DNA from: a virus
Taxonomy: Duplodnaviria; Heunggongvirae; Uroviricota; Caudoviricetes
Length of the DNA stretch: 22,360 nucleotides
Direction: 5' to 3' (one strand)
IMG/VR virus record: IMGVR_UViG_2737471845_000014
Location: 1-22,360 of that record
Positions within the stretch are counted from its first letter, which is position 1, and every line of letters begins with the position of its first letter. Positions 103 to 21,887 of the stretch are shown here, piece by piece. The notes below the pieces were generated by a model. That model made no database searches, was not told the DNA's origin, and saw only the letters and a list, made by a program, of their open reading frames with translations. The position numbers and the translations under genes were made by a program.

Positions 103-2250
<2,148 letters not shown>

Positions 2251-2302
2251 ACAAACTCCCTTTAAAATGGCCGATGGCACCTGTCTATGATAGGTGGCAA
2301 AT

Positions 2303-3028
2303 TCAGAAAAGAGAAGATTGCTGTGGAATAGCCGGAACTGCTCCGATCTCTGGAAGCGTTTTACGTAAGTCTTCCCACAGGGTATGTACCAGTTCCGGGG
2401 CCTGGGCAATGTCTGGCGTATGTAAAAAAAGATAAGGCGTAGTGGTCTGATGCCACTGCGCTAATTTTTGTAACCAGACCTGAAATAATTCCCGGTTTTG
2501 CGTCATATCATCACTACCGATAAAACGGATCAGCGGATTTGTCGCCGTCAGTACAGCATGTACCGGAACTTTAGGTTTTTTTCGTTGAGCGTCGCGAATA
2601 GCTTCACTGTGTGGACGTGCTGCATGAACCGGGCGGCTGTCTAAAATCACCCGATTAACGCCGCGCTGATGTAAACCGCGATTAAGCGTTTGTTCCTCTT
2701 CCCCTTTGGCGAAAAACTGTGGATGGCGGACTTCCACACCATAATTAAATTCGCCAGGGAGAGAATCGAGAAAATGCCAAAGCGCAGGCAGCTCCCGTGG
2801 GCCGAATGTGGCAGGCAGTTGCAGCCAGTATTGCCCAATGCGCGGAGCCAACGGTGACATGCGGGTCAAAAATTCAGTCACTAAATCATCGCAATGTCGT
2901 AATGCTGCCTGATGCGAAATGGTCGCCGGAAACTTAAAACAGAAGCGGAAGTCATCTGTGGTCTGTTCACGCCAGCGCAGGACAACCTCGGGTTTCGGCA
3001 GGGCGTAAAGCGTGGTGTTGCCCTCCAC
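2303..3028 (-). CDS. yecE: DUF72-family protein YecE, 5'-truncated by prophage insertion
   Basis: 241-aa ORF beginning at a GTG (3026-3028), with sequence VEGNTTLYALPKPEVVLRWREQTTDDFRF typical of DUF72/YecE; the conserved N-terminal ~30 residues are absent. The frame stays open upstream only to a stop at 3086-3088, inside the integrase 3' end. Confidence 0.75.
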   Translation of the reverse strand: MEGNTTLYALPKPEVVLRWREQTTDDFRFCFKFPATISHQAALRHCDDLVTEFLTRMSPLAPRIGQYWLQLPATFGPRELPALWHFLDSLPGEFNYGVEVRHPQFFAKGEEEQTLNRGLHQRGVNRVILDSRPVHAARPHSEAIRDAQRKKPKVPVHAVLTATNPLIRFIGSDDMTQNRELFQVWLQKLAQWHQTTTPYLFLHTPDIAQAPELVHTLWEDLRKTLPEIGAVPAIPQQSSLF

Positions 3029-3054
3029 GCAGTTAACATGACGGGTATTGAAGG

Positions 3055-4368
3055 CTAACCCACTGATTTTAATAAGTCTCTTGTGTCACTTTGGTGACCA
3101 TGGGACATCATTGGGACATAATCTGCCAGCTTCTGATTCAGCATTGCGATCTGTTCTGCATTACTGTCAGTCATCCATGCTCCGTATACATTGAACACCA
3201 TCTGGGCACTTGCATGGCCCATCTGGCTGGCAATGAAGCTTGGGTTTGCTCCGGCAGATAATGACCAGCACGCATAAGTGTGTCGTGACTGGTATGCTTT
3301 CCGGTGCCTGATGCCCGCACGCTTAATGGCTGTTTCCCATGAGTCGCCAATAGAATCTACCTTGTAGATAAAACCGACCTGTTTGCTTTTTCTAACCACC
3401 TGGGGGTTAAATACGAAAGTACATTCATGGTTCACTGTACGTCCATATTCACGTAGTTGAACCTTGATGTGGTGCTGCTTACCCAGTCTTGTCATTTCAG
3501 CCTGATTTTTCAGGACACTGATAGCGGGCTGGATAAGATGCACAACCCTGTTTGTACTTGCTTCAGTTTTAGGTAGAGTGAACTCACCGAGTTTCGTATA
3601 ATTGCGCCTGATAGTAATTGTTCCTGCTTTCAGATCGATATCTTCCCAGGCCAGGGAGACCAGTTCACCATGACGCATTCCTGTGTACACAGCCAATGAC
3701 CACAGGTTTTTTGTCTGCTGATGCCGGCAAGCATCTATCAGGCGAATAAATTCGTCACGAGTTAGCGGATCTGGCTCTGCCCTGGCTCTTTTAAGAGGCT
3801 TAATTCCCTCGAAGGGATTTGCTTCTAAGTAACCGTGATCTGCAGCAAACTGAAACATTCCAGCGATTGTCGTCATATAATAATTTACAGTAACGACGCT
3901 CCGTCCTCTTGCTGGTGCTTTGTCTTTCGTTGAATTCTGATATCCGGTCAGCAAATCTTTCCTGATATACAGTAATTCCTCTTTGGTCACCGTTGACACC
4001 AGTCTGCTACCTCCAATTTTCGGAACCACCGTTCTTGCAACGGATTCATAGCGATTGAATGCATTTGCAGAGATTTCCATGCGTTTCAGATCCAGCCACT
4101 TTTCTTCAAGCTCTTTCACCGTAATTTCTTTTTTATTTACCCCAAAAGCCTTGAGGTTAGGAGAGTCAGGGAACTGCGCAGCGTAATCAAAGTTTCCTGT
4201 ACGAATGGCAAAACATACAGATGTCCGCAGCTCTCCGGCGATCTTCCTGTTCTTGGCAGTGTCAGGGACACCAAGATTTTCCCTGACACGTTTACCTTTA
4301 AAATTAAACCAGATGCGTAATGTGCCACCGTGGTTTTCGACGCCTGTTGGATATTTGACTTTATCCAT
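3055..4368 (-). CDS. int: Phage tyrosine integrase
   Basis: 437-aa ORF with tyrosine-recombinase C-terminal motifs (…RHTYACWSLSAGANP…, HASAQMVFNVYGAW); GGAGG Shine-Dalgarno 6 nt before the ATG at 4368; stop TAG at 3055-3057 abuts yecE. Confidence 0.92.
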   Translation of the reverse strand: MDKVKYPTGVENHGGTLRIWFNFKGKRVRENLGVPDTAKNRKIAGELRTSVCFAIRTGNFDYAAQFPDSPNLKAFGVNKKEITVKELEEKWLDLKRMEISANAFNRYESVARTVVPKIGGSRLVSTVTKEELLYIRKDLLTGYQNSTKDKAPARGRSVVTVNYYMTTIAGMFQFAADHGYLEANPFEGIKPLKRARAEPDPLTRDEFIRLIDACRHQQTKNLWSLAVYTGMRHGELVSLAWEDIDLKAGTITIRRNYTKLGEFTLPKTEASTNRVVHLIQPAISVLKNQAEMTRLGKQHHIKVQLREYGRTVNHECTFVFNPQVVRKSKQVGFIYKVDSIGDSWETAIKRAGIRHRKAYQSRHTYACWSLSAGANPSFIASQMGHASAQMVFNVYGAWMTDSNAEQIAMLNQKLADYVPMMSHGHQSDTRDLLKSVG

Positions 4369-4423
4369 CGATACCTCCAGACGCCCAAGAGCGATACGAG
4401 CTTACATATTTCATGGTATTAAA

Positions 4424-4660
4424 TCACCCAGGTTGTTTGTTTTTCATTGAAGCGACCCAGGCATCGATTGCTTTTCTGTTATACATACATTCGCTGGAAG
4501 GTTTTGGATTACCGTCAGGCGATACGTGAATATACTCTCTTCCTACCATCCAGCATTCTTTCCGGGCCCGGAGAATTGTGCCTGGTTTGAGCCCGGTAAT
4601 TGCGATAAGAACGCTTTCACAAACCCATTCATTGGGAGCCAGTTGAATCACATTGCCCAT
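4424..4660 (-). CDS. xis: Excisionase (DUF1233-type Xis)
   Basis: 78-aa ORF directly upstream of int on the same strand; the LIAITGLKPGTI…GREY…VSPDG…SEC pattern resembles excisionases of P22/HK620-type int-xis modules; GAGGT RBS. Confidence 0.75.
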   Translation of the reverse strand: MGNVIQLAPNEWVCESVLIAITGLKPGTILRARKECWMVGREYIHVSPDGNPKPSSECMYNRKAIDAWVASMKNKQPG

Positions 4661-4668
4661 GCATTACC

Positions 4669-4815
4669 TCACACAACACTCAGCCCACGGCAGTGGCACC
4701 ACACTTCAAGCATTCGTTTCACAATTTCACGGCAGTAGAAACCGTCAACATCTCGCGTCAGGTCATAGCGATTGCCGTAACGCTGGCGTACCCATAGCTC
4801 AAACGCTTTATTCAT
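4669..4815 (-). CDS. Hypothetical small protein (48 aa), not in the supplied ORF track
   Basis: Hand translation of the reverse strand gives MNKAFELWVRQRYGNRYDLTRDVDGFYCREIVKRMLEVWCHCRGLSVV, with an AAGGAAG RBS 6 nt upstream of the ATG at 4815 and tight packing between neighbouring genes. Confidence 0.35.
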   Translation of the reverse strand: MNKAFELWVRQRYGNRYDLTRDVDGFYCREIVKRMLEVWCHCRGLSVV

Positions 4816-4818
4816 TCT

Positions 4819-5061
4819 TTACTTCCTTTGCATGGCTCGTAATTTTTTCAGATGAGCTTCCTGCTCTGTTTCTGCCAGAATTTGTCGGTATTCCTGGTGA
4901 TCGATCCGTTCAAACAGTCCATTAAAATCGTTTATTTTTACCGACTGCATTTGCCCATCCATTCTTCTGTACAACACAGTGTTATTTATGCAGCGAACAA
5001 TTTTTACCGGGTAACCGGCACTGTCGGTATACAGTTGTCCTTGATTAATCAGAGCGAACAT
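4819..5061 (-). CDS. Hypothetical protein (80 aa)
   Basis: Internal ATG at 5061 preceded by an AGGAGA RBS (MFALINQGQLYTDSAGYPVKIVRC…); the longer 121-aa ORF would overlap the upstream gene by about 90 nt. Confidence 0.5.
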   Translation of the reverse strand: MFALINQGQLYTDSAGYPVKIVRCINNTVLYRRMDGQMQSVKINDFNGLFERIDHQEYRQILAETEQEAHLKKLRAMQRK

Positions 5062-5092
5062 TTTTTCTCCTGCTCTCTGAATAGTGAGAACT

Positions 5093-5470
5093 TCAGAGTC
5101 GTATGTTTGTAGCGGGTTCAATACTGATAATTTCTGCTGAGACAAGCATCCCGGCAAGCCAGAGCTCTCCGGACAGGTCTTCATCCTGGCATATCAGTTC
5201 GCCAATATTAATGGTGGCCATGATATCCGTTTCCCCAGTACGCTTATCCCTGACTTCTTCATAAGGTAGCGTTGCGTACAGGCTTTCAATAGCGCAACTG
5301 ATAACATCCAGTCCGGTCAGATTGCCGCCGACAGTAACTTCGAATGTTTCGCGGTATTCCCATAGTCCGAAAGTTAATCGAACGGTTTGTTTTGCCATGC
5401 GTCCGCACGACGTCAGATTCGGGTCATAGTTCATTATTTGCGGTTGAGTATTCTGGGTGTTCATCTGCAT
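5093..5470 (-). CDS. Hypothetical protein (125 aa)
   Basis: ATG at 5470 preceded by AAGGGA (MQMNTQNTQPQIMNYDPNLTSCGRMAKQTV…); no recognisable domain. Confidence 0.55.
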   Translation of the reverse strand: MQMNTQNTQPQIMNYDPNLTSCGRMAKQTVRLTFGLWEYRETFEVTVGGNLTGLDVISCAIESLYATLPYEEVRDKRTGETDIMATINIGELICQDEDLSGELWLAGMLVSAEIISIEPATNIRL

Positions 5471-5504
5471 TTCCCTTAGCCCGGCGGCCTGCCGGGCATA
5501 TAAG

Positions 5505-6332
5505 TTATTTAATCTGGATAAATGGTGTATTGGCACCACTGGTCATGTATTGCGGCAGTGTACCGTTCCACTTGTTGATGGCTTCCAGCTCCATGACGCC
5601 TGGGTTCTGGCGCAGAGCTTCGCCGCGTAAACGAATGGCATCGGCTTCTGCCTGGGCTTTTGTTCGAATGGCATCAGCCTGTCCGGCAGCTTCCGCACGT
5701 AGCATGTTGGCCTCCGCTTCACGTTGCTTGACTTCCTGTTCGCGCTGCAGGGTTTTCTGGTTTGCCGTGACTTTGGCGTTAATGCTGTCGATAACGGTTG
5801 GAGGGTATTCCGGTTTACCTACATAAGAGAGGCTCATTACCTGAATGCCGATGGGTGTCATCTCTTCCTGAATGTCTTTAAGTGCGGCATCCAGTAGTTC
5901 AGACTTGCCGCCGTCGATAAATTTGTCAGTGGTCATTTTGCTGGCCAGCCGATTGAGTGCGTCGGCAATTTTCTGGCGCAGGTCAGTGTCGGTAATGTCA
6001 TCCACGCCTTTGCGGTAGGTCTGAAACACCGTGGTAACTTTGGATGGATCAACTTTGTAGGCCACACCGATGTGATAGCCGATGGTTGTACCGTCACTCA
6101 TCTGGAAACTGAACGGTTCATCGTAGGTCTTCATTTGTTTGAAGGTGGGGAAGATATAAACTTCAGTATTCCAGCCAGTCCAGTAGCGACCAACACCGAC
6201 CACCTCACCGACGCCTTTGTCGTCGCCCAGTTTATTTACCTTGATGCCAACATTACCTGGTTCAACGCGATCGCAACCGACAAGGCCAATTGTCGGCAGA
6301 ACAATGGCTAAAGCAAAAATAATTTTTTTCAT
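5505..6332 (-). CDS. SPFH/band-7 (prohibitin/HflC-like) domain lipoprotein
   Basis: 275-aa ORF with lipoprotein signal peptide and lipobox (MKKIIFALAIVLPTIGLVGC), then an SPFH-like core and an Ala/Glu/Arg/Gln-rich coiled-coil tail (EQEVKQREAEANMLRAEAAGQADAIRTKAQAEADAIRLRGEAL), as in HflK/HflC/YqiK. Confidence 0.8.
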   Translation of the reverse strand: MKKIIFALAIVLPTIGLVGCDRVEPGNVGIKVNKLGDDKGVGEVVGVGRYWTGWNTEVYIFPTFKQMKTYDEPFSFQMSDGTTIGYHIGVAYKVDPSKVTTVFQTYRKGVDDITDTDLRQKIADALNRLASKMTTDKFIDGGKSELLDAALKDIQEEMTPIGIQVMSLSYVGKPEYPPTVIDSINAKVTANQKTLQREQEVKQREAEANMLRAEAAGQADAIRTKAQAEADAIRLRGEALRQNPGVMELEAINKWNGTLPQYMTSGANTPFIQIK

Positions 6333-6517
6333 CTTTTATCCTTAGTGAAAGAAAGCCCCTTGTAAATGGCATAAATGCAGGGCGGGGTCAGAAACGCCAG
6401 TGCAAAGCCAGAAATAACTGCTATAGTATCCTTCATGGATATAAGGAACGGAACAAGTAATCCGTAAATGCATGCGATAATTGCCAGTAAAATTACTATT
6501 GTGAAATACAGTCTCAT
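6329..6517 (-). CDS. Small two-helix membrane protein (62 aa), coupled to the SPFH gene
   Basis: Two hydrophobic helices (MRLYFTIVILLAIIACIYGLLVPFLI… / VISGFALAFLTPPCIYAIY); its stop overlaps the SPFH start (ATGA at 6329-6332). Confidence 0.55.
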   Translation of the reverse strand: MRLYFTIVILLAIIACIYGLLVPFLISMKDTIAVISGFALAFLTPPCIYAIYKGLSFTKDKR

Positions 6518-6540
6518 TGGTCTGTGGTATCCCGATATTT

Positions 6541-6648
6541 TTAACCGACTGACAGCGCAATAAAGAGAATAATGATTTCTGTTAGTGTAAGCACTGTGGC
6601 AAGGATTAAAATCAGTTTTACTCTGTTTAATTCACGGTTGCTTTTCAT
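6541..6648 (-). CDS. Putative small membrane peptide (35 aa), not in the supplied ORF track
   Basis: Hand translation: MKSNRELNRVKLILILATVLTLTEIIILFIALSVG; single hydrophobic helix; lies 23 nt upstream of the 62-aa membrane gene. Confidence 0.3.
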   Translation of the reverse strand: MKSNRELNRVKLILILATVLTLTEIIILFIALSVG

Positions 6649-6693
6649 ATAAACGGTTAGTAAAAAATGGAAGAATTATAGTCTTCTTAATAT

Positions 6694-7275
6694 TTAATGT
6701 GTCACTGGCGCTTCTGGCATACCATGAGTATTCAGGTCGTTAATCATTTCATCCAGAAGGAGTTCAAGCCCTTCGCGCCCCATAGCAGATACAATGAAGC
6801 CATTATCAGGATCTGCGATGAGCATTTTTTGATAGAGAAACAGAACTCGCCCCATGCCTTCAGCTTCACCATATTTTTCAATAAATCCCCATTCGACATG
6901 GTTTTGCAGGGCAATGCGAAGTGGTCCTGGGTATATACTCATGCAACCATGCTTCCCCTTATAAATAACTGCGCGATCTGTCGTCCCGTTATCGTTAGGG
7001 ATATCAATAGTGCCATTCTTGTCTTCCTCTTCACTGATAAACTTCATCACATACAGCCAGCGCCACTGAGCAACCTTCATATCGACTGAAAATCTTCCCA
7101 GGAATCCGGCATCATCGGCTTCTGCAATACATTGCATGATTCTTAAACCGTGCCAGTATGGATTGTCGTATTCACCATCATTAAGCCGCTGTACGGCCTC
7201 AACATAATCAATGGTTGTATTGCCAATTTTTATGCCATGAGCTGTCGCTTCTGGTTTGAATTCAAAATTGTTCAT
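6694..7275 (-). CDS. Hypothetical protein (193 aa)
   Basis: ATG at 7275 with an AAAGGAA RBS (MNNFEFKPEATAHGIKIGNTTIDYVEAVQRL…); preceded by a 415-bp AT-rich non-coding gap; no recognisable domain. Confidence 0.6.
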   Translation of the reverse strand: MNNFEFKPEATAHGIKIGNTTIDYVEAVQRLNDGEYDNPYWHGLRIMQCIAEADDAGFLGRFSVDMKVAQWRWLYVMKFISEEEDKNGTIDIPNDNGTTDRAVIYKGKHGCMSIYPGPLRIALQNHVEWGFIEKYGEAEGMGRVLFLYQKMLIADPDNGFIVSAMGREGLELLLDEMINDLNTHGMPEAPVTH

Positions 7276-7690
7276 AATGTTTGTTCCTTTGCTGGTGGAA
7301 TAATCGTGTAACCCGCTCTTTTTGCCATCCACAGAAATGTATCCATGCAACCAACGAATTCATTATCCAACAGATGTTTTGAGTAAATTACTTTCCCATT
7401 TTCAATGGTTAGCAACACTCTTACTTTTTCGTGTATTACCCCCCCTGCTCAGGCTCATTCTGCATTTTATTTCGTGCTGATGTCTCCATTATTTTATCTC
7501 CCATAAGCCTTGCGCAAATACAGGTTGGCTATATGAAGATAAGAATCTCCATGTTGTGCAATGAGGCAGGCAGTTTTATACGATGCCTTATGTTTCAGGA
7601 AAGTCATAACTGAGTTTCTCTATGAATAAAGGTTGTAACAATACCCGGCGATTAAACCGTAATATATTATTCGAAGATGACTTGTTTTAT

Positions 7691-8056
7691 TTAACTGGAT
7701 AGTTCTTTTTTAGCTGCTGCTTCAGCATAGCAACGTGCAAATTCAAGAACTTCATCACCTGTTCTTTTTATTGCGTCATTGTCTGACATTTGTAATACGA
7801 CAACTGCGCATAATAAATCATGGATATTGTTTGCAAAGGAATCCGGTGCCAGACAGAGACCCTCATAATTATTTCGTTGTAAGTTAGCTTCCGTCATTGG
7901 CTCCGAAGTGCCGGTGAGCCGGTTTTTGACAATCACGCGGTCTCGAATCACTATATCGGCAGTATCAGCTTCCCGGGCAACAGGCGGGAGGAGATGTCCG
8001 TTAATATAATCAGAGTTATCAATTTGGAGAACGGTTATGTTTTCAAACTTATTCAT
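7691..8056 (-). CDS. Hypothetical protein (121 aa)
   Basis: ATG at 8056 with GAGG upstream (MNKFENITVLQIDNSDYINGHLL…); same strand as the leftward early operon. Confidence 0.5.
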   Translation of the reverse strand: MNKFENITVLQIDNSDYINGHLLPPVAREADTADIVIRDRVIVKNRLTGTSEPMTEANLQRNNYEGLCLAPDSFANNIHDLLCAVVVLQMSDNDAIKRTGDEVLEFARCYAEAAAKKELSS

Positions 8057-8297
8057 GGCTTCCTCTGCTGACATGTATGTTCTGTTATATAGTGAGTCTC
8101 AGAAGTGTTTTCATATTGAGACTGTTTCCGCAATGGTTGAGAGAAATGTCCGTATGTATCTTGATGGCAGAAGTGGCGATTATGTCACTCTGGCTTTCGG
8201 CTCCTCAGTTGAAGAACTTCGTGAAATTCGCTCTCAGCTTATAGAAAAGCGCGGCGATGTTATTGCCCCATGGTATCTGATGAAGCCCGGGCAATAG
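8037..8297 (+). CDS. Hypothetical small protein (86 aa), uncertain
   Basis: ATG at 8037 with GGAG 7 nt upstream; its 5' end overlaps the start of the minus-strand 7691-8056 ORF and its 3' end overlaps the 8260-8928 gene, so it may be spurious. Confidence 0.3.
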   Translation: MFSNLFMASSADMYVLLYSESQKCFHIETVSAMVERNVRMYLDGRSGDYVTLAFGSSVEELREIRSQLIEKRGDVIAPWYLMKPGQ

Positions 8298-8928
8298 GCC
8301 CACCAGTTAACAGCCACATCGGATCGCAACCAAGCGCATTAGCCAGTGGAATGATCTGGCTTGCGGGGACTTCGCAGATACCGCACTCCCAGTCGTTTAT
8401 GGGGTCGTTGTAGGTGTGAATCATGCGCGCCAGGTCTGCTTCTGTCAGTCCAACTTTTTTACGTGCGGCTTCTATACGTGTGCCAATGCTTTCCTCCTGG
8501 ATGTCTGGCTGATTTACGGTAACAGCAGCAGCGCTATTTTTTTCACTCAGCAGAGAAAGAGGATCGCATCCCAGGACATTTGCCAGGGGGATTAGCATGC
8601 TGATGGTTGGTTCATACTCTCCGCTCTCCCACTGGATGATAATTTCTTCATCGAGATCGAGCAGCCTGGCGAGTTCGGCGGTTGTTAAGCCGCAGGATTC
8701 GCGTTGGGTGCGAAGACGGTTGTTGATTGCAGAATTTTTGTTCTGTAAAAGCATTGCTGACGATAGCTTTCTGGATATGCTATTTGTCATATCCCATGCC
8801 AGTCCTGCGCATGACTCGATATCGCCAGAGAGCGTAGCATCTGGCGTTGCTTTGGCTATTAGTGTAATGAGACTGCCGAGGTTTTTCAGTTCTTCAAGAC
8901 AGTCAAGAGTTGTAGCTTTATTGATCAT
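8260..8928 (-). CDS. Tandem helix-turn-helix (XRE-type) DNA-binding protein
   Basis: 222-aa ORF with two internally repeated HTH units (GLTTAELARLLDLDEE…IPLANVLGCDPLSLL and GLTEADLARMIHTYND…IPLANALGCDPMWLL); first gene leftward of the OL-like operator region. Confidence 0.7.
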   Translation of the reverse strand: MINKATTLDCLEELKNLGSLITLIAKATPDATLSGDIESCAGLAWDMTNSISRKLSSAMLLQNKNSAINNRLRTQRESCGLTTAELARLLDLDEEIIIQWESGEYEPTISMLIPLANVLGCDPLSLLSEKNSAAAVTVNQPDIQEESIGTRIEAARKKVGLTEADLARMIHTYNDPINDWECGICEVPASQIIPLANALGCDPMWLLTGGPIARASSDTMGQ

Positions 8929-8959
8929 GAGATGATACCTCAGTTACGAACTTTGTTTT

Positions 8960-9012
8960 ATGGTAACTAAGGTATCAAGGTGTGGCAAGTGATTTTTGAT
9001 ACTTTGGTTTCT
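8960..9012. promoter_or_regulatory. OL-like operator/promoter region (TGATAC half-site repeats)
   Basis: Inverted 12-mers ACTAAGGTATCA (8966-8977) and TGATACTTTGGT (8998-9009) between the CI stop and the tandem-HTH gene start; related motifs recur in the cI-cro intergenic region. Confidence 0.45.
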
Positions 9013-9031
9013 TTTTGTGTTTTGAGTCTGG

Positions 9032-9688
9032 TCAGAAAATATCCCACCTGGCATCAACTACAACACCTACTATTTCGCAATCATTGTCCATTTCTATGAT
9101 TGGATATTGTGGATTAAGGGGCTTTAGAAACGCCTTTCCCATTTCAGAAATATATTTTTTGAATGTTGCTTCATTGGTGGATTTTTTTCTGGCGATGACG
9201 TAACACCCTGAAAAAACTTCTTTATCTGGGTTGACAAGGATCGACATTCCTTCAGGAAATGTTATTCCTACGGGCGAAGTCATTGAGTCTCCGTGCACTT
9301 CCAGCCAGAACCCCCTATCACCAGCGTATTTTACAGAATGCCTCCAGTTATCCTGATCATACATGTTGTAGTCATCACCAGCAGTTGCGAATAATCCTGC
9401 CTGAACCCAGTTAATTACAGGGTAAGAGTGTGCTGTGTCTCTCTGTGGGCAGCTCTTAACATTATTTTCCCAATGCTTATCTTTTTCATCTCCGCTCTGA
9501 AGCCACTGCGGTGAACACTGCAGTGCAGCTGCGACTTTAAAAAGGGTGTCACCGTTGAAACTTTTTGTAAGGCCTTGCTCGGCTTTACTGATTGCAACTC
9601 TGGTGACCCCTGCTTTTTTAGCCAACGCATCTTGCGTTAACCCAGCTTTTTGTCGTGCGTTGATGAGGCGTTCACCTAAAGATTTCAT
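9032..9688 (-). CDS. cI: CI-like prophage repressor (HTH plus S24 LexA-like autopeptidase domain)
   Basis: ATG at 9688 with an AGGAGAAGAA RBS gives a 218-aa protein: N-terminal HTH (LINARQKAGLTQDALAKKAGVTRVAISKAEQG) and C-terminal S24 peptidase region (LEVHGDSMTSP…VVDARW); divergent from the cro-like gene. Confidence 0.9.
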   Translation of the reverse strand: MKSLGERLINARQKAGLTQDALAKKAGVTRVAISKAEQGLTKSFNGDTLFKVAAALQCSPQWLQSGDEKDKHWENNVKSCPQRDTAHSYPVINWVQAGLFATAGDDYNMYDQDNWRHSVKYAGDRGFWLEVHGDSMTSPVGITFPEGMSILVNPDKEVFSGCYVIARKKSTNEATFKKYISEMGKAFLKPLNPQYPIIEMDNDCEIVGVVVDARWDIF

Positions 9689-9704
9689 TTTTCTTCTCCT
9701 TTCA

Positions 9705-9765
9705 TGGCTGCTGATACTAAAGTAACAGAATCTCTTGATACTTTGGATTCTCGCGTTTAACATTC
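9705..9765. promoter_or_regulatory. OR-like operator region with divergent pRM/pR promoters
   Basis: Direct repeats TGATACTAAAGT (9712-9723) and TGATACTTTGGA (9736-9747) in the 111-bp space between the divergent cI and cro-like starts; same motif family as the 8960-9012 sites. Confidence 0.5.
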
Positions 9766-9799
9766 TTGGATAACAGAGTATCCGGTGTGAGACTAAAGA

Positions 9800-10027
9800 A
9801 TGACCCTTTATGAAATATTAAAAACTCAATTTAAAACCAATGCCGCTATTGGCCGCAGGTTCCCAAAGAAAGGAAAGCCTCGTGGCAGTCAAGGTGTTGG
9901 AAAGTGGAAAACGAGAGGTGTTCCAGAGGACGTAGCTATTCTCTGCCATCTGGATCCAAGTATCCCGTATATCCATCCTGATTTAGCGCACACAGAAGAG
10001 GGGCAAGGTAAGCAATCGGAGGTGTGA
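9800..10027 (+). CDS. Cro-like early regulator (putative)
   Basis: 75-aa ORF divergent from cI at the canonical cro position; only weak HTH-like pattern (…NAAIGRRF…GVGKWKTRGVPED…) and a weak RBS, so the function is by position. Confidence 0.45.
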   Translation: MTLYEILKTQFKTNAAIGRRFPKKGKPRGSQGVGKWKTRGVPEDVAILCHLDPSIPYIHPDLAHTEEGQGKQSEV

Positions 10028-10040
10028 TATGTCACAGTGC

Positions 10041-18556: not shown

Positions 18557-19435
18557 TTAAAGTAGTTTCCTATCTGCCGCCGCTCTGTGGCGTATAACCT
18601 TAGTAATACTATAGCGTGGTTTAGACAGCGCGCCATTTGTTTCTTTTGTTGTTTCTGTCAGTTCTACAACAAAAAGATCACCCTTACAGAATGCTGCTTG
18701 GTTGTGTTCAACCCGTTCAAGAAAAGCCTCATCTTTCATAGATGCGCTAACTTCTTCGCCATTTGGCAGGATGATATCCCAGCTTTTGCCTTGCTTGAAT
18801 CGAACATTAGCAAAATGTACATTAGCTTGGCGTGTCGTTACGTGCGTTTTCTCGACAAAGGTGGATTTTGCAGTTTTAAAACTTACTGCTTCAGCTTGCG
18901 TCACCCTGACTACCTTATGCTTCTGCTGTGAAACTGAGAACGTGGATGGTTTTTCAGTCTGCAGGGGTTTATAGATTAATTTATCCAGTTCTTTTCGGAT
19001 GATTGGACTGGTTATTAATTTTTGAATGTCGTTACTGCATTTAACCTTCTCACCATCCACTTCGATTTCTGCTGTATCTTTTTGTTCATCGACGACAATG
19101 GAGCTGATTTTACGCCCTTTGAGCCATTCGATTATCCCGAGTACGCCACCTGCGGCAACTCCACCACCTGCAACGAGGCCAAGGGCGTTAATAGTTTTTA
19201 TGCTCCCCATCACAGCAACAAGCAAAGTAAATGAACCTTCTTTTGTTGCCTTGATGTTGACTTTCGGCTCTGCTGTTTCGCCATTAATTATTTTTTCGGC
19301 GTGTTCAATCAGGGCACTAAGAGAGGTTAAGGCTTCGCCTAATGTTTTCGCGTCGATCTGATTATCTGCGTATGCCTCTCCACCGTAGGCAATTTCGATT
19401 TCTGTTATTGGCATGTTTTCGAGTTGCTGCGTCAT
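18557..19435 (-). CDS. Hypothetical protein with a central glycine-rich TM segment (about 292 aa), first gene of the operon
   Basis: ATG at 19435 (GGA upstream; the ORF track's GTG at 19468 is the alternative); central hydrophobic stretch (LGLVAGGGVAAGGVLGIIEWL); C-terminal ~190-aa K/E/T-rich domain; no recognisable family. Confidence 0.6.
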   Translation of the reverse strand: MTQQLENMPITEIEIAYGGEAYADNQIDAKTLGEALTSLSALIEHAEKIINGETAEPKVNIKATKEGSFTLLVAVMGSIKTINALGLVAGGGVAAGGVLGIIEWLKGRKISSIVVDEQKDTAEIEVDGEKVKCSNDIQKLITSPIIRKELDKLIYKPLQTEKPSTFSVSQQKHKVVRVTQAEAVSFKTAKSTFVEKTHVTTRQANVHFANVRFKQGKSWDIILPNGEEVSASMKDEAFLERVEHNQAAFCKGDLFVVELTETTKETNGALSKPRYSITKVIRHRAAADRKLL

Positions 19436-19555
19436 CAAAAGCATCCTTTGCGCAAGAGAAATAGCCACAGGATACAGATAATTATGAAAAAATCACTAAC
19501 GCGTACGCAAAAACTATCTTAATCTGTTAAGAGTGGTCGCTTCGCCACACAACTT

Positions 19556-20892: not shown

Positions 20893-21426
20893 ATGAGCGC
20901 AAAAATCAAATACGGCCTGTCAGCTGCGGTTCTGGCGCTGATTGCTGCAGGCGCGTCTGCTCCTCAAATACTTGACCAGTTTCTGGATGAAAAAGAGGGT
21001 AACCACACTACGGCATACCGCGATGGTTCCGGCATATGGACCATCTGTCGTGGTGCCACAATGGTGGATGGTAAGCCCGTCATACCGGGAATGAAGCTGT
21101 CGAAGGAAAAATGCGACCAGGTTAACGCTATTGAACGTGATAAGGCGCTGGCATGGGTGGAGCGCAATATTAAAGTACCACTGACCGAACCACAGAAAGC
21201 GGGTATAGCGTCATTTTGTCCCTATAACATTGGCCCCGGTAAGTGTTTCCCGTCGACGTTTTATAAGCGGCTGAATGCCGGTGATCGTAAGGGTGCATGC
21301 GAGGCGATTCGCTGGTGGATAAAAGATGGTGGGCGCGATTGCCGCATACGTTCAAATAACTGCTATGGGCAGGTTATTCGTCGTGACCAGGAAAGCGCAT
21401 TAGCCTGTTGGGGGATAGATCAGTGA
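20893..21426 (+). CDS. SAR endolysin (phage 21 R21-type lysozyme with signal-anchor-release domain)
   Basis: 177-aa ORF with an N-terminal weakly hydrophobic Gly/Ala-rich SAR helix ([18 protein letters not shown]) and a T4-lysozyme-like catalytic region (E…D…T pattern: [22 protein letters not shown]). Confidence 0.9.
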
Positions 21427-21887
21427 GCAGAGTCGCCGCGATTATTTATGCTCTGGTTATCTGCATCATCGTCTGCCTGTCGTGGGCGGTCAATCATTAC
21501 CGTGATAACGCCATTACCTACAAAGCCCAGCGCGACAAAAATGCCAGAGAACTGGAGAAGGCGAACGCCACCATTACTGACATGCAGCAGCGTCAGCGTG
21601 ATGTTGCTGCGCTCGATGCAAAGTACTCGAGAGAATTAGCCAATGCGCAAGCTGAAAATGAAACTCTGCGCGCTGATGTTGCCGCTGGTCGTCGTCGGTT
21701 GCACATCAAAGCAGTCTGTCAGTCAGTGCGTGAAGCCACCACCGCCTCCGGCGTGGATAATGCAACCAGCCCCCGACTGGCAGACACCGCTGAACGGGAT
21801 TATTTCACCCTCAGAGACCGATTGATGACGATGCAGATGCAACTGGAAGGGGCACAGGAGTATATCCGCACTCAGTGCATTAAGTAG
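21408..21887 (+). CDS. i-spanin Rz
   Basis: Translation closely matches remembered lambda Rz ([46 protein letters not shown]…); true start may be the GTG at 21423 rather than the ATG at 21408; overlaps the endolysin 3' end. Confidence 0.85.
21643..21825 (+). CDS. o-spanin Rz1 (lipoprotein), embedded in the +1 frame of Rz
   Basis: 60-aa ORF with lipobox (LVVVGC) and a proline-rich segment ([14 protein letters not shown]); matches remembered lambda Rz1; fully nested within Rz. Confidence 0.85.

Follow-up and report, generated by a model that had tools for sequence, protein, structure and literature searches.

SPFH assemblies and the phage cassette

SPFH cages, such as those of HflK/C, prohibitin, stomatin, erlin and flotillin, have been understood structurally only recently, and their function is defined by the content that they enclose. 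Escherichia coli HflK/HflC (PDB 7vhq, 7wi3 and 9cz2), a cage around FtsH, is formed by a pair of SPFH proteins with an N-terminal transmembrane helix, which show a periplasmic orientation in the inner membrane. In the QmcA-YbbJ operon (PDB 8z5g), the SPFH gene is followed by a gene encoding a small membrane protein of the NfeD type, which presumably joins the assembly; QmcA faces the cytoplasm. Staphylococcus phages of the genus Kayvirus contain an SPFH gene, mbpS, preceded by an abutting gene encoding a small membrane protein, MbpV. Phage lambda carries cIII in its early-left operon, and CIII is a small cytoplasmic competitive inhibitor of FtsH.

The stretch of DNA analysed here (the window) comprises the 22,360 nucleotides (nt) of IMG/VR virus record IMGVR_UViG_2737471845_000014, positions 1 to 22,360, and shows a phiP27-like prophage integrated at yecE. 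Its leftward early operon contains a gene encoding an SPFH/Band-7 lipoprotein of 275 amino acids (aa) (5505-6332, minus strand; PHROG 200), whose start overlaps the end of an upstream gene encoding a two-transmembrane protein of 62 aa, the partner (6329-6517, minus strand; PHROG 1130). Both genes are interpreted as a conserved and mobile phage cassette, whose products would form a cage on the periplasmic side of the inner membrane, with a transmembrane partner, and would have a role in lytic development. The probability given to this interpretation is about 0.5.

The region of 1.6 kb around the cassette shows 98.9% identity to an E. coli chromosome and 95.4% to phage phiP27, which carries the same genes at the same place, adjoining attL, int and xis, with no sequence differences of note. 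The SPFH protein is the orthologue of phiP27 L05 (98.9% aa identity), and the partner is identical (100% aa identity) to the product of an unannotated open reading frame (ORF) upstream of L05. Since the window is phiP27-like and its SPFH gene corresponds to L05, the cassette is already catalogued, as PHROG 200 and PHROG 1130; it is present in databases and functionally unstudied. The SPFH gene is not new: L05 has been in GenBank since phiP27 was sequenced, it is routinely annotated as "SPFH domain-containing protein", and several phage genome papers mention such a gene and call its role unclear (PMC7150955 and PMC8540360, among others). The database names "putative serine protease" and "lipoprotein" are not reliable on function. 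Three features appear to be undescribed in the searchable literature: a dedicated partner with two helices, distinct from NfeD proteins, a C-terminal signature shared by the whole family, and the spread of the cassette from enterobacterial prophages to N4 and crAss-like phages. The present analysis adds a dedicated partner, with two helices and not of the NfeD type, for the phage SPFH protein, and shows that strictly lytic phages, among them N4 with its tractable genetics, have the cassette in common with temperate ones.

The SPFH lipoprotein

The 275-aa protein was defined by its ORF, Pfam, phrog_200, AlphaFold2 and Foldseek. Its N-terminus, MKKIIFALAIVLPTIGLVGC followed by DR, shows MKK, a hydrophobic core and then L-V-G-C20, and is thus a predicted signal peptide ending in a lipobox of the bacterial pattern [LVI][ASTVI][GAS]C. 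By direct reading of the sequence, this signal peptide, with the lipobox LVGC (Cys20) and an Asp at +2, spans positions 6273-6332 (minus strand). In the alignment of 116 family members, at least 90% retain the lipobox Cys, and 113 of 150 cluster representatives show the strict pattern; members without the Cys have a plain N-terminal helix instead.

The SPFH domain covers residues 22-208 (5709-6269, minus strand) according to the Pfam envelope, and the strands and helices of the AlphaFold2 model occupy residues 20-175. The Pfam Band_7 profile (PF01145) was matched with E=6.1e-31 and 108.3 bits, against a gathering cut-off of 23.6, with residues 22-208 spanning profile positions 2-176 of 176; this score places the protein in the SPFH superfamily. 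The match to phrog_200, labelled "lipoprotein", has E=1e-114. The AlphaFold2 monomer model, built with a 116-sequence alignment, has a mean predicted local distance difference test (pLDDT) of 89.8 and shows an SPFH alpha/beta core, a 65-residue helix (residues 178-242), a short helix and a flexible tail. The long helix is rich in Ala, Glu and Arg (5607-5801, minus strand), and its pLDDT is mostly above 90. An earlier sequence-only reading of the window had claimed a lipoprotein with an SPFH core and a coiled-coil tail; the lipobox, the Band_7 match and the modelled helix bear out this description.

In the Foldseek search of this model against the PDB, the top folds were E. coli HflC/HflK (7vhq, E=3e-14), followed by cage subunits of prohibitin, erlin and stomatin. 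The whole group, HflK/C included, has E-values from 1e-14 to 1e-11, with a probability of 1.00 over 255-300 columns, and thus covers both the SPFH fold and the long helix. Helix 178-242 aligns to the helical walls of the HflK/C, prohibitin and erlin chains. QmcA (E=1.6e-8) and flotillin are weaker matches. In the comparison with HflK/C and QmcA that had been proposed from the sequence, HflK/C is the closer of the two, and the predicted structure shows a cage-forming type of SPFH fold with HflK/C as its nearest match. With phmmer, HflK was the only solved relative of note in the PDB (E=2e-4).

The resemblance to HflK and HflC does not extend to orthology. In the NCBIfam search all matches of the SPFH protein to HflK, HflC and FloT models were below threshold: TIGR01932 (HflC) gave 25.5 bits against a cut-off of 134.4, TIGR01933 (HflK) 23.4 against 159.4, NF008181 20.1 against 660 and NF008259 18.6 against 427. 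Scores so far under the equivalog cut-offs indicate that the phage protein is not an HflK or HflC orthologue. It shares with HflK/HflC the full-length SPFH core, the long helix and, putatively, the periplasmic orientation at the inner membrane. It differs from them in sequence (16-18% identity), in its predicted lipid anchor in place of an N-terminal transmembrane helix, and in its two-helix partner, which HflK/C lacks. Because a single gene replaces the K/C pair, the phage assembly is probably a homo-oligomer.

The C-terminal region shows the signature I-N-K-W-N-G-T-L-P (5553-5579, minus strand), recognised in the family alignment, in which W255 is invariant and G257 and P260 are near-invariant. 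The family-wide form, I-x-K-W-[DN]-G-x-L-P, extends from prophages of E. coli as far as a crAss-like phage and Kayvirus MbpS; the latter, a distant member with about 25% identity and an E-value of about 1e-7, shows I-E-K-W-N-G-K-x-P.

The partner gene and its association with the SPFH gene

The partner was defined by its ORF, the match to phrog_1130, labelled "membrane protein" (E=2.5e-23), and the alignment. It shows two hydrophobic helices, a basic C-terminal tail and, in the loop, the motif P-x-[LM]-[IV]-S-[AS]-x-[DS]-T, with Ser27 invariant and Pro23 near-invariant. Charge counts predict an N-in/C-in topology, which would place the motif at the periplasmic interface. No Pfam family was matched at E<=0.1, NCBIfam gave nothing, and the partner profile found nothing significant in the PDB; the partner is therefore neither an NfeD protein nor a member of a known holin family. 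In particular, YbbJ of PDB 8z5g was not matched by the profile, and 62 aa are too short for two helices plus an OB fold. The cassette thus resembles the QmcA-YbbJ operon in the co-transcription of an SPFH gene and the gene of a small membrane protein, presumably part of the assembly, and differs from it in the lack of an NfeD/OB-fold domain and in the position of the partner gene, which is upstream of the SPFH gene and not downstream.

The two genes of the window are adjacent and overlapping on the same strand. The partner stop codon TGA (6331-6329) overlaps the SPFH start codon ATG (6332-6330), forming an ATGA overlap at 6332-6329, and a Shine-Dalgarno sequence, AAGGA (6343-6339), is located 7 nt upstream of the SPFH start; the complete junction spans 6329-6343 (minus strand). 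The translational coupling to a two-helix membrane protein noticed in the sequence-only reading is borne out by this arrangement. Overlaps of 1-16 nt recur at the junctions of Ostro, E173, PHB09, BcepF1, P88, ST340, Fraca, N4/VEc25, P19-618, PB119, S6 and PHA46.

Co-occurrence was studied with annotated phage records and exact-protein look-ups, since a scan of viral contigs gave only near-identical loci. A partner profile, built from fused N-terminal extensions and stand-alone partner proteins, matched the gene that immediately precedes the SPFH gene in 13 of a diverse set of 18 phages. A six-frame scan added three phages with a partner no more than about 700 nt upstream (PaCe gene 50, PMBT37 and a crAss-like phage), which gives 16 of 18. 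Genomes outside the training set of the profile were also matched: P19-618, PB119, PHA46, PHB09, BcepF1, E173 and Fraca. In the reverse direction, three divergent partner proteins or subfamilies led to 18 contigs, and in all 18 the next gene encodes Band_7, with a 4-nt overlap; tblastn independently places the partner beside the SPFH gene in virulent myoviruses of 145 kb. Of the co-occurrence with small membrane genes that had been anticipated, the part concerning the 62-aa family holds, and the part concerning the 35-aa ORF does not, as this ORF is not conserved. The pairing of SPFH protein and partner is real and old. In Bacteroides phage PhiCrAssBcn2, an unannotated ORF of 73 codons (2278-2499 of the locus) overlaps the SPFH start and matches the partner profile with E=6.6e-5.

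In about 20 of the 150 best cluster representatives, partner and SPFH protein form a continuous ORF, whose N-terminal two-helix hairpin carries the loop motif of the 62-aa protein and is clearly homologous to it. One of these fused homologues, P0002 (347 aa), gave an AlphaFold2 model with a mean pLDDT of 89.6 (84-90 in the hairpin), for which Foldseek also finds full-length matches to HflC/HflK, prohibitin, erlin and stomatin. The P0002 fusion, on E. coli contig JAPPYW010000018.1 (3195-3240), shows six As after the SPFH ATG, and seven would restore two overlapping genes; the fused sequence is present in a second, independent sample. The fusions were initially regarded as strong "Rosetta stone" evidence and were downgraded: since P0002 differs by a single base in an A-run and the clustering may be biased, they show conserved adjacency and are not proven natural fusion proteins. 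A word-indexed search with the partner profile, which is too insensitive for a membrane protein of 62 aa, gave only 64 proteins and no fusion among them.

A further small gene had been proposed as a third component, an ORF of 35 aa with a single hydrophobic helix upstream of the partner (6541-6648, minus strand). This ORF, read from the sequence and without family match, is doubtful as a gene and was rejected as a third partner because it shows no Shine-Dalgarno sequence, no purifying selection and a patchy presence. It remains open in 26 of 27 sequence variants; among these variants polymorphism is equal inside and outside the ORF (24 of 108 and 17 of 73 sites, respectively), and its changes include 8 synonymous and 18 non-synonymous. 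Among 82 loci that share 97-100% identity in the SPFH gene, 31 lack the segment and carry a different gene in its place, and none of the more distant phages examined shows the ORF upstream of the pair. The ORF is not annotated in RefSeq, and Pfam, PADLOC, PHROG and NCBIfam give no match.

Distribution of the cassette

By tblastn, SPFH relatives were found in 741 of 50,697 phage records (about 1.5%). Temperate carriers include phiP27-type and Shiga toxin (Stx)-converting phages, the P2-like phage P88 and the lambdoid phage Fraca. Many carriers are virulent, among them coliphage N4 (strain VEc25) and other Schitoviridae, Seunavirus myoviruses of about 145 kb, jumbo phages, Bruynoghevirus, phiCbK-like Caulobacter phages, a crAss-like Bacteroides phage, Lak megaphages and Staphylococcus Kayvirus (MbpS). 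SPFH relatives were likewise found in haloarchaeal tailed viruses. An exhaustive HMMER search of 1.84 billion cluster representatives gave 3,008 clusters with E<=1e-3, of which 227 reached E<=1e-30; most clusters are of 270-300 aa and aligned from end to end. The presence of the cassette in strictly lytic phages makes it an unlikely component of a lysogeny switch and removes the usual guess of a lysogeny/HflK function.

The pair is located in the leftward early operon of lambdoid and phiP27-like prophages, in the early operon of P2-like phages after cox, and after the RNAP2 genes in N4. In the N4 locus (VEc25, 1907-3331), the partner and SPFH genes are genes 19 and 20 and follow a gene encoding a Hoc-like head-decoration protein and an RNAP2 gene; the gene directly before the pair matches phrog_1510, "superinfection exclusion", with E=1e-50. 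Among complete E. coli genomes, 409 of 5,426 (about 7.5%) contain the cassette region. SPFH homologues with about 76% identity come from contigs of about 110 kb, and plasmids account for 27 of the E. coli matches, which suggests that phage-plasmids carry the SPFH gene besides integrated prophages.

Proposed role and alternative explanations

In the proposed mechanism, translational coupling would provide the SPFH protein and its partner in fixed proportion. The SPFH protein would be exported, lipid-modified at Cys20 and held in the inner membrane facing the periplasm, on the same side as HflK/C. Inner-membrane retention is expected because of the Asp at +2, which in E. coli leads to retention by the +2 rule. 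Since members without the Cys have an N-terminal helix and Gram-positive phages deal with a single membrane, the outer face of the cytoplasmic membrane would be the location common to the family. The long helix and the conserved I-x-K-W-x-G-x-L-P tail would drive oligomerisation into a ring or cage enclosing part of the cytoplasmic membrane. The partner would supply the membrane-spanning part, with its P-x-L-V-S-A-x-D-T loop at the periplasmic interface, in a role parallel to that of the N-terminal helices of HflK/C and of the NfeD partner of QmcA. The cassette would be expressed with early or middle genes and act in the lytic development of temperate and virulent phages, as its position in early or middle operons and its presence in phages without lysogeny imply; it would condition or insulate the host membrane and would not set the lysis-lysogeny switch. 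Among the functions suggested in the sequence-only reading, an effect on membrane microdomains is the one that best fits the evidence.

Several points weigh against this interpretation. We infer oligomerisation, lipidation, membrane location and the contact between SPFH protein and partner alike, and "conditions the membrane", an expression without a named client, is difficult to falsify in this form. The residue at +2 differs across the family (T, S, D, G, E and others), so some members might go to the outer membrane, and sorting is for this reason the weakest structural step; in the window protein itself, an Arg at +3 may weaken the retention by Asp at +2. Two of the 18 diverse phages, those of the Kayvirus and phiCbK-like groups, show a different small membrane protein upstream of the SPFH gene: MbpV precedes MbpS as the partner precedes the SPFH protein, but it has a single helix, falls outside the two-helix partner family (E=0.31) and belongs to a pair located inside the lysis region. 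A single base in an A-run separates the inspected fusion from the two-gene layout, and the longest sequence may be preferred as representative in the clustering. Finally, outer-membrane vesicles contain a Pasteurella prophage protein that is possibly related (PMC9872710).

A more specific version of the cage, which is judged rather unlikely, is that a periplasmic assembly with its own transmembrane subunit captures a universal host membrane machine (FtsH or another protease, a channel or a translocon) or makes the membrane resistant to a second infection or to abortive-infection effectors that target it. If true, it would represent a new class of host-takeover or exclusion device. Similarly tentative is a role in superinfection exclusion or envelope defence, in which a periplasmic assembly would block the entry of DNA from a second phage or the damage to the membrane. 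The cassette is accessory, mobile and, by prediction, early expressed and envelope-located, as known exclusion genes are, PHROGs assigns the partner to the category "moron, auxiliary metabolic gene and host takeover", and the upstream neighbour in N4 has the "superinfection exclusion" label mentioned above, although this last point is guilt by association on a database label. PADLOC-DB v2 gave no match at E<=0.1 for the SPFH, 62-aa and 35-aa ORFs or for four neighbouring genes, and the literature searches found nothing that ties SPFH proteins to anti-phage defence or superinfection exclusion; the defence module considered in the sequence-only reading thus found no direct backing. In addition, promoter-like and terminator-like sites in 4300-10100 were no commoner than in shuffled sequence, so that expression in the lysogen is not indicated.

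The functional idea favoured in that reading, a functional analogue that modulates FtsH, is the least likely of the options it listed. As an HflK/C mimic, the phage cage would bind or sequester FtsH from the periplasmic side and stabilise CII/CIII-type or other phage proteins. In the PDB, HflC/HflK give the best structural matches and HflK the best sequence match, the putative periplasmic topology is the same, and the gene shares the early-left operon location of lambda cIII. The explanation is nevertheless improbable: the identity is only 16-18%, the equivalog scores are far below the cut-offs, prohibitin and erlin fit about as well as HflK/C, the distinct two-helix partner weakens the parallel, and the distribution is patchy even inside one genus. 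The family is moreover abundant in strictly virulent phages, which take no lysogeny decision, and present in haloarchaeal viruses, while Archaea are not known to have FtsH. Relatives in many virulent phages argue against a cIII-like role in particular; the likeness to CIII is restricted to genomic position, with no sequence or structural relation, and the cassette, unlike cIII, is also found in phages without lysogeny. The FtsH/lysogeny idea was already raised, and doubted on the same grounds, in an earlier study (PMC8540360).

A regulator of lysis timing, or an export scaffold for lysis enzymes, would use the cage to keep a small holin-like membrane protein in place, or to organise secretion, up to the late phase of infection. 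In size and layout the partner resembles class II holins, which show two helices and a basic tail, but its conserved loop motif is not a known holin feature. In Kayvirus, mbpV-mbpS lies between the endolysin gene lysK and the transglycosylase gene tgl, adjoining holA, and MbpS was suggested as a possible aid to Tgl export (PMC7150955); in the crAss-like phage, a peptidoglycan hydrolase gene is found two genes downstream of the SPFH gene. Against this, the lysis genes of the window are about 15 kb from the cassette, and the gene layout of N4 does not fit, the lysis set of this phage being gp60-63 in a description that does not mention the partner/SPFH pair (bioRxiv 10.1101/2025.11.12.688109). 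A function in lysis is accordingly considered quite improbable. Lysogenic conversion by a surface or vesicle lipoprotein that helps the host, for example in virulence or immune stimulation, is the most remote of these explanations. It is suggested by PM0222, an "HflK/C-like" protein of 25-35 kDa from a Pasteurella multocida prophage, which is found in outer-membrane vesicles and activates TLR1/2, and whose deletion attenuates virulence (PMC9872710). PM0222 is a possible relative, and conversion cannot explain the abundance of the family in virulent phages. Activation of TLR2 is also a general property of bacterial lipoproteins.

Genomic context of the cassette

The window begins with the host genes cmoB, cmoA, yecN and yecE, followed by the genes encoding the integrase (3055-4368, minus strand) and the excisionase (4424-4660, minus strand). 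The genes that follow int and xis are likewise on the minus strand, and the cassette is located in this leftward early operon, between int/xis and the gene encoding an S24 CI-type repressor (9032-9763, minus strand), in agreement with the early-left location noted from the sequence. A gene encoding a helix-turn-helix (HTH) protein (8260-8928, minus strand) is found near the repressor gene. Beyond the repressor, the rightward operon contains genes encoding Rha/Ash regulators, a DnaC-like loader and a DnaB-like helicase, and then the lysis genes, with a lysozyme gene at 20893-21426 and an Rz gene at 21408-21887.

Two elements flank the cassette. Downstream, in the 40-nt gap between the SPFH stop codon and a DUF5406 gene, there is a GC-rich hairpin with a 7-bp stem, GCCCGGC-aggcc-GCCGGGC (5479-5497, minus strand), without a T-run, which the terminator scan did not report. 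Upstream, between the stop codon of the ORF 6694-7350 and the 35-aa ORF (about 6655-6690, minus strand), a perfect TATAAT, preceded at 19 nt by GTGACA, overlaps an AT-rich hairpin, GAAGA(A/C)T-ATA-ATTCTTC, which is followed by a T-run; this element was seen by eye and was not reported by the scan. It could be a weak promoter or a weak terminator heading the cassette, and neither is regarded as established.

Two further observations concern the rightward operon. A protein of 303 aa without Pfam match, encoded at 18557-19468 (minus strand), matches the PADLOC candidate defence family PDC-S42 with E=3.3e-53. Together with two unassigned ORFs (17921-18307 and 18308-18553, both minus strand), this gene lies in the opposite orientation inside the replication-to-lysis operon, and the three genes resemble an inserted defence island. 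At 11523-13043 (plus strand), a single ORF of 506 aa joins Ash and Rha domains, and its closest RefSeq relative shows two separate ash-family genes followed by a Rha gene.

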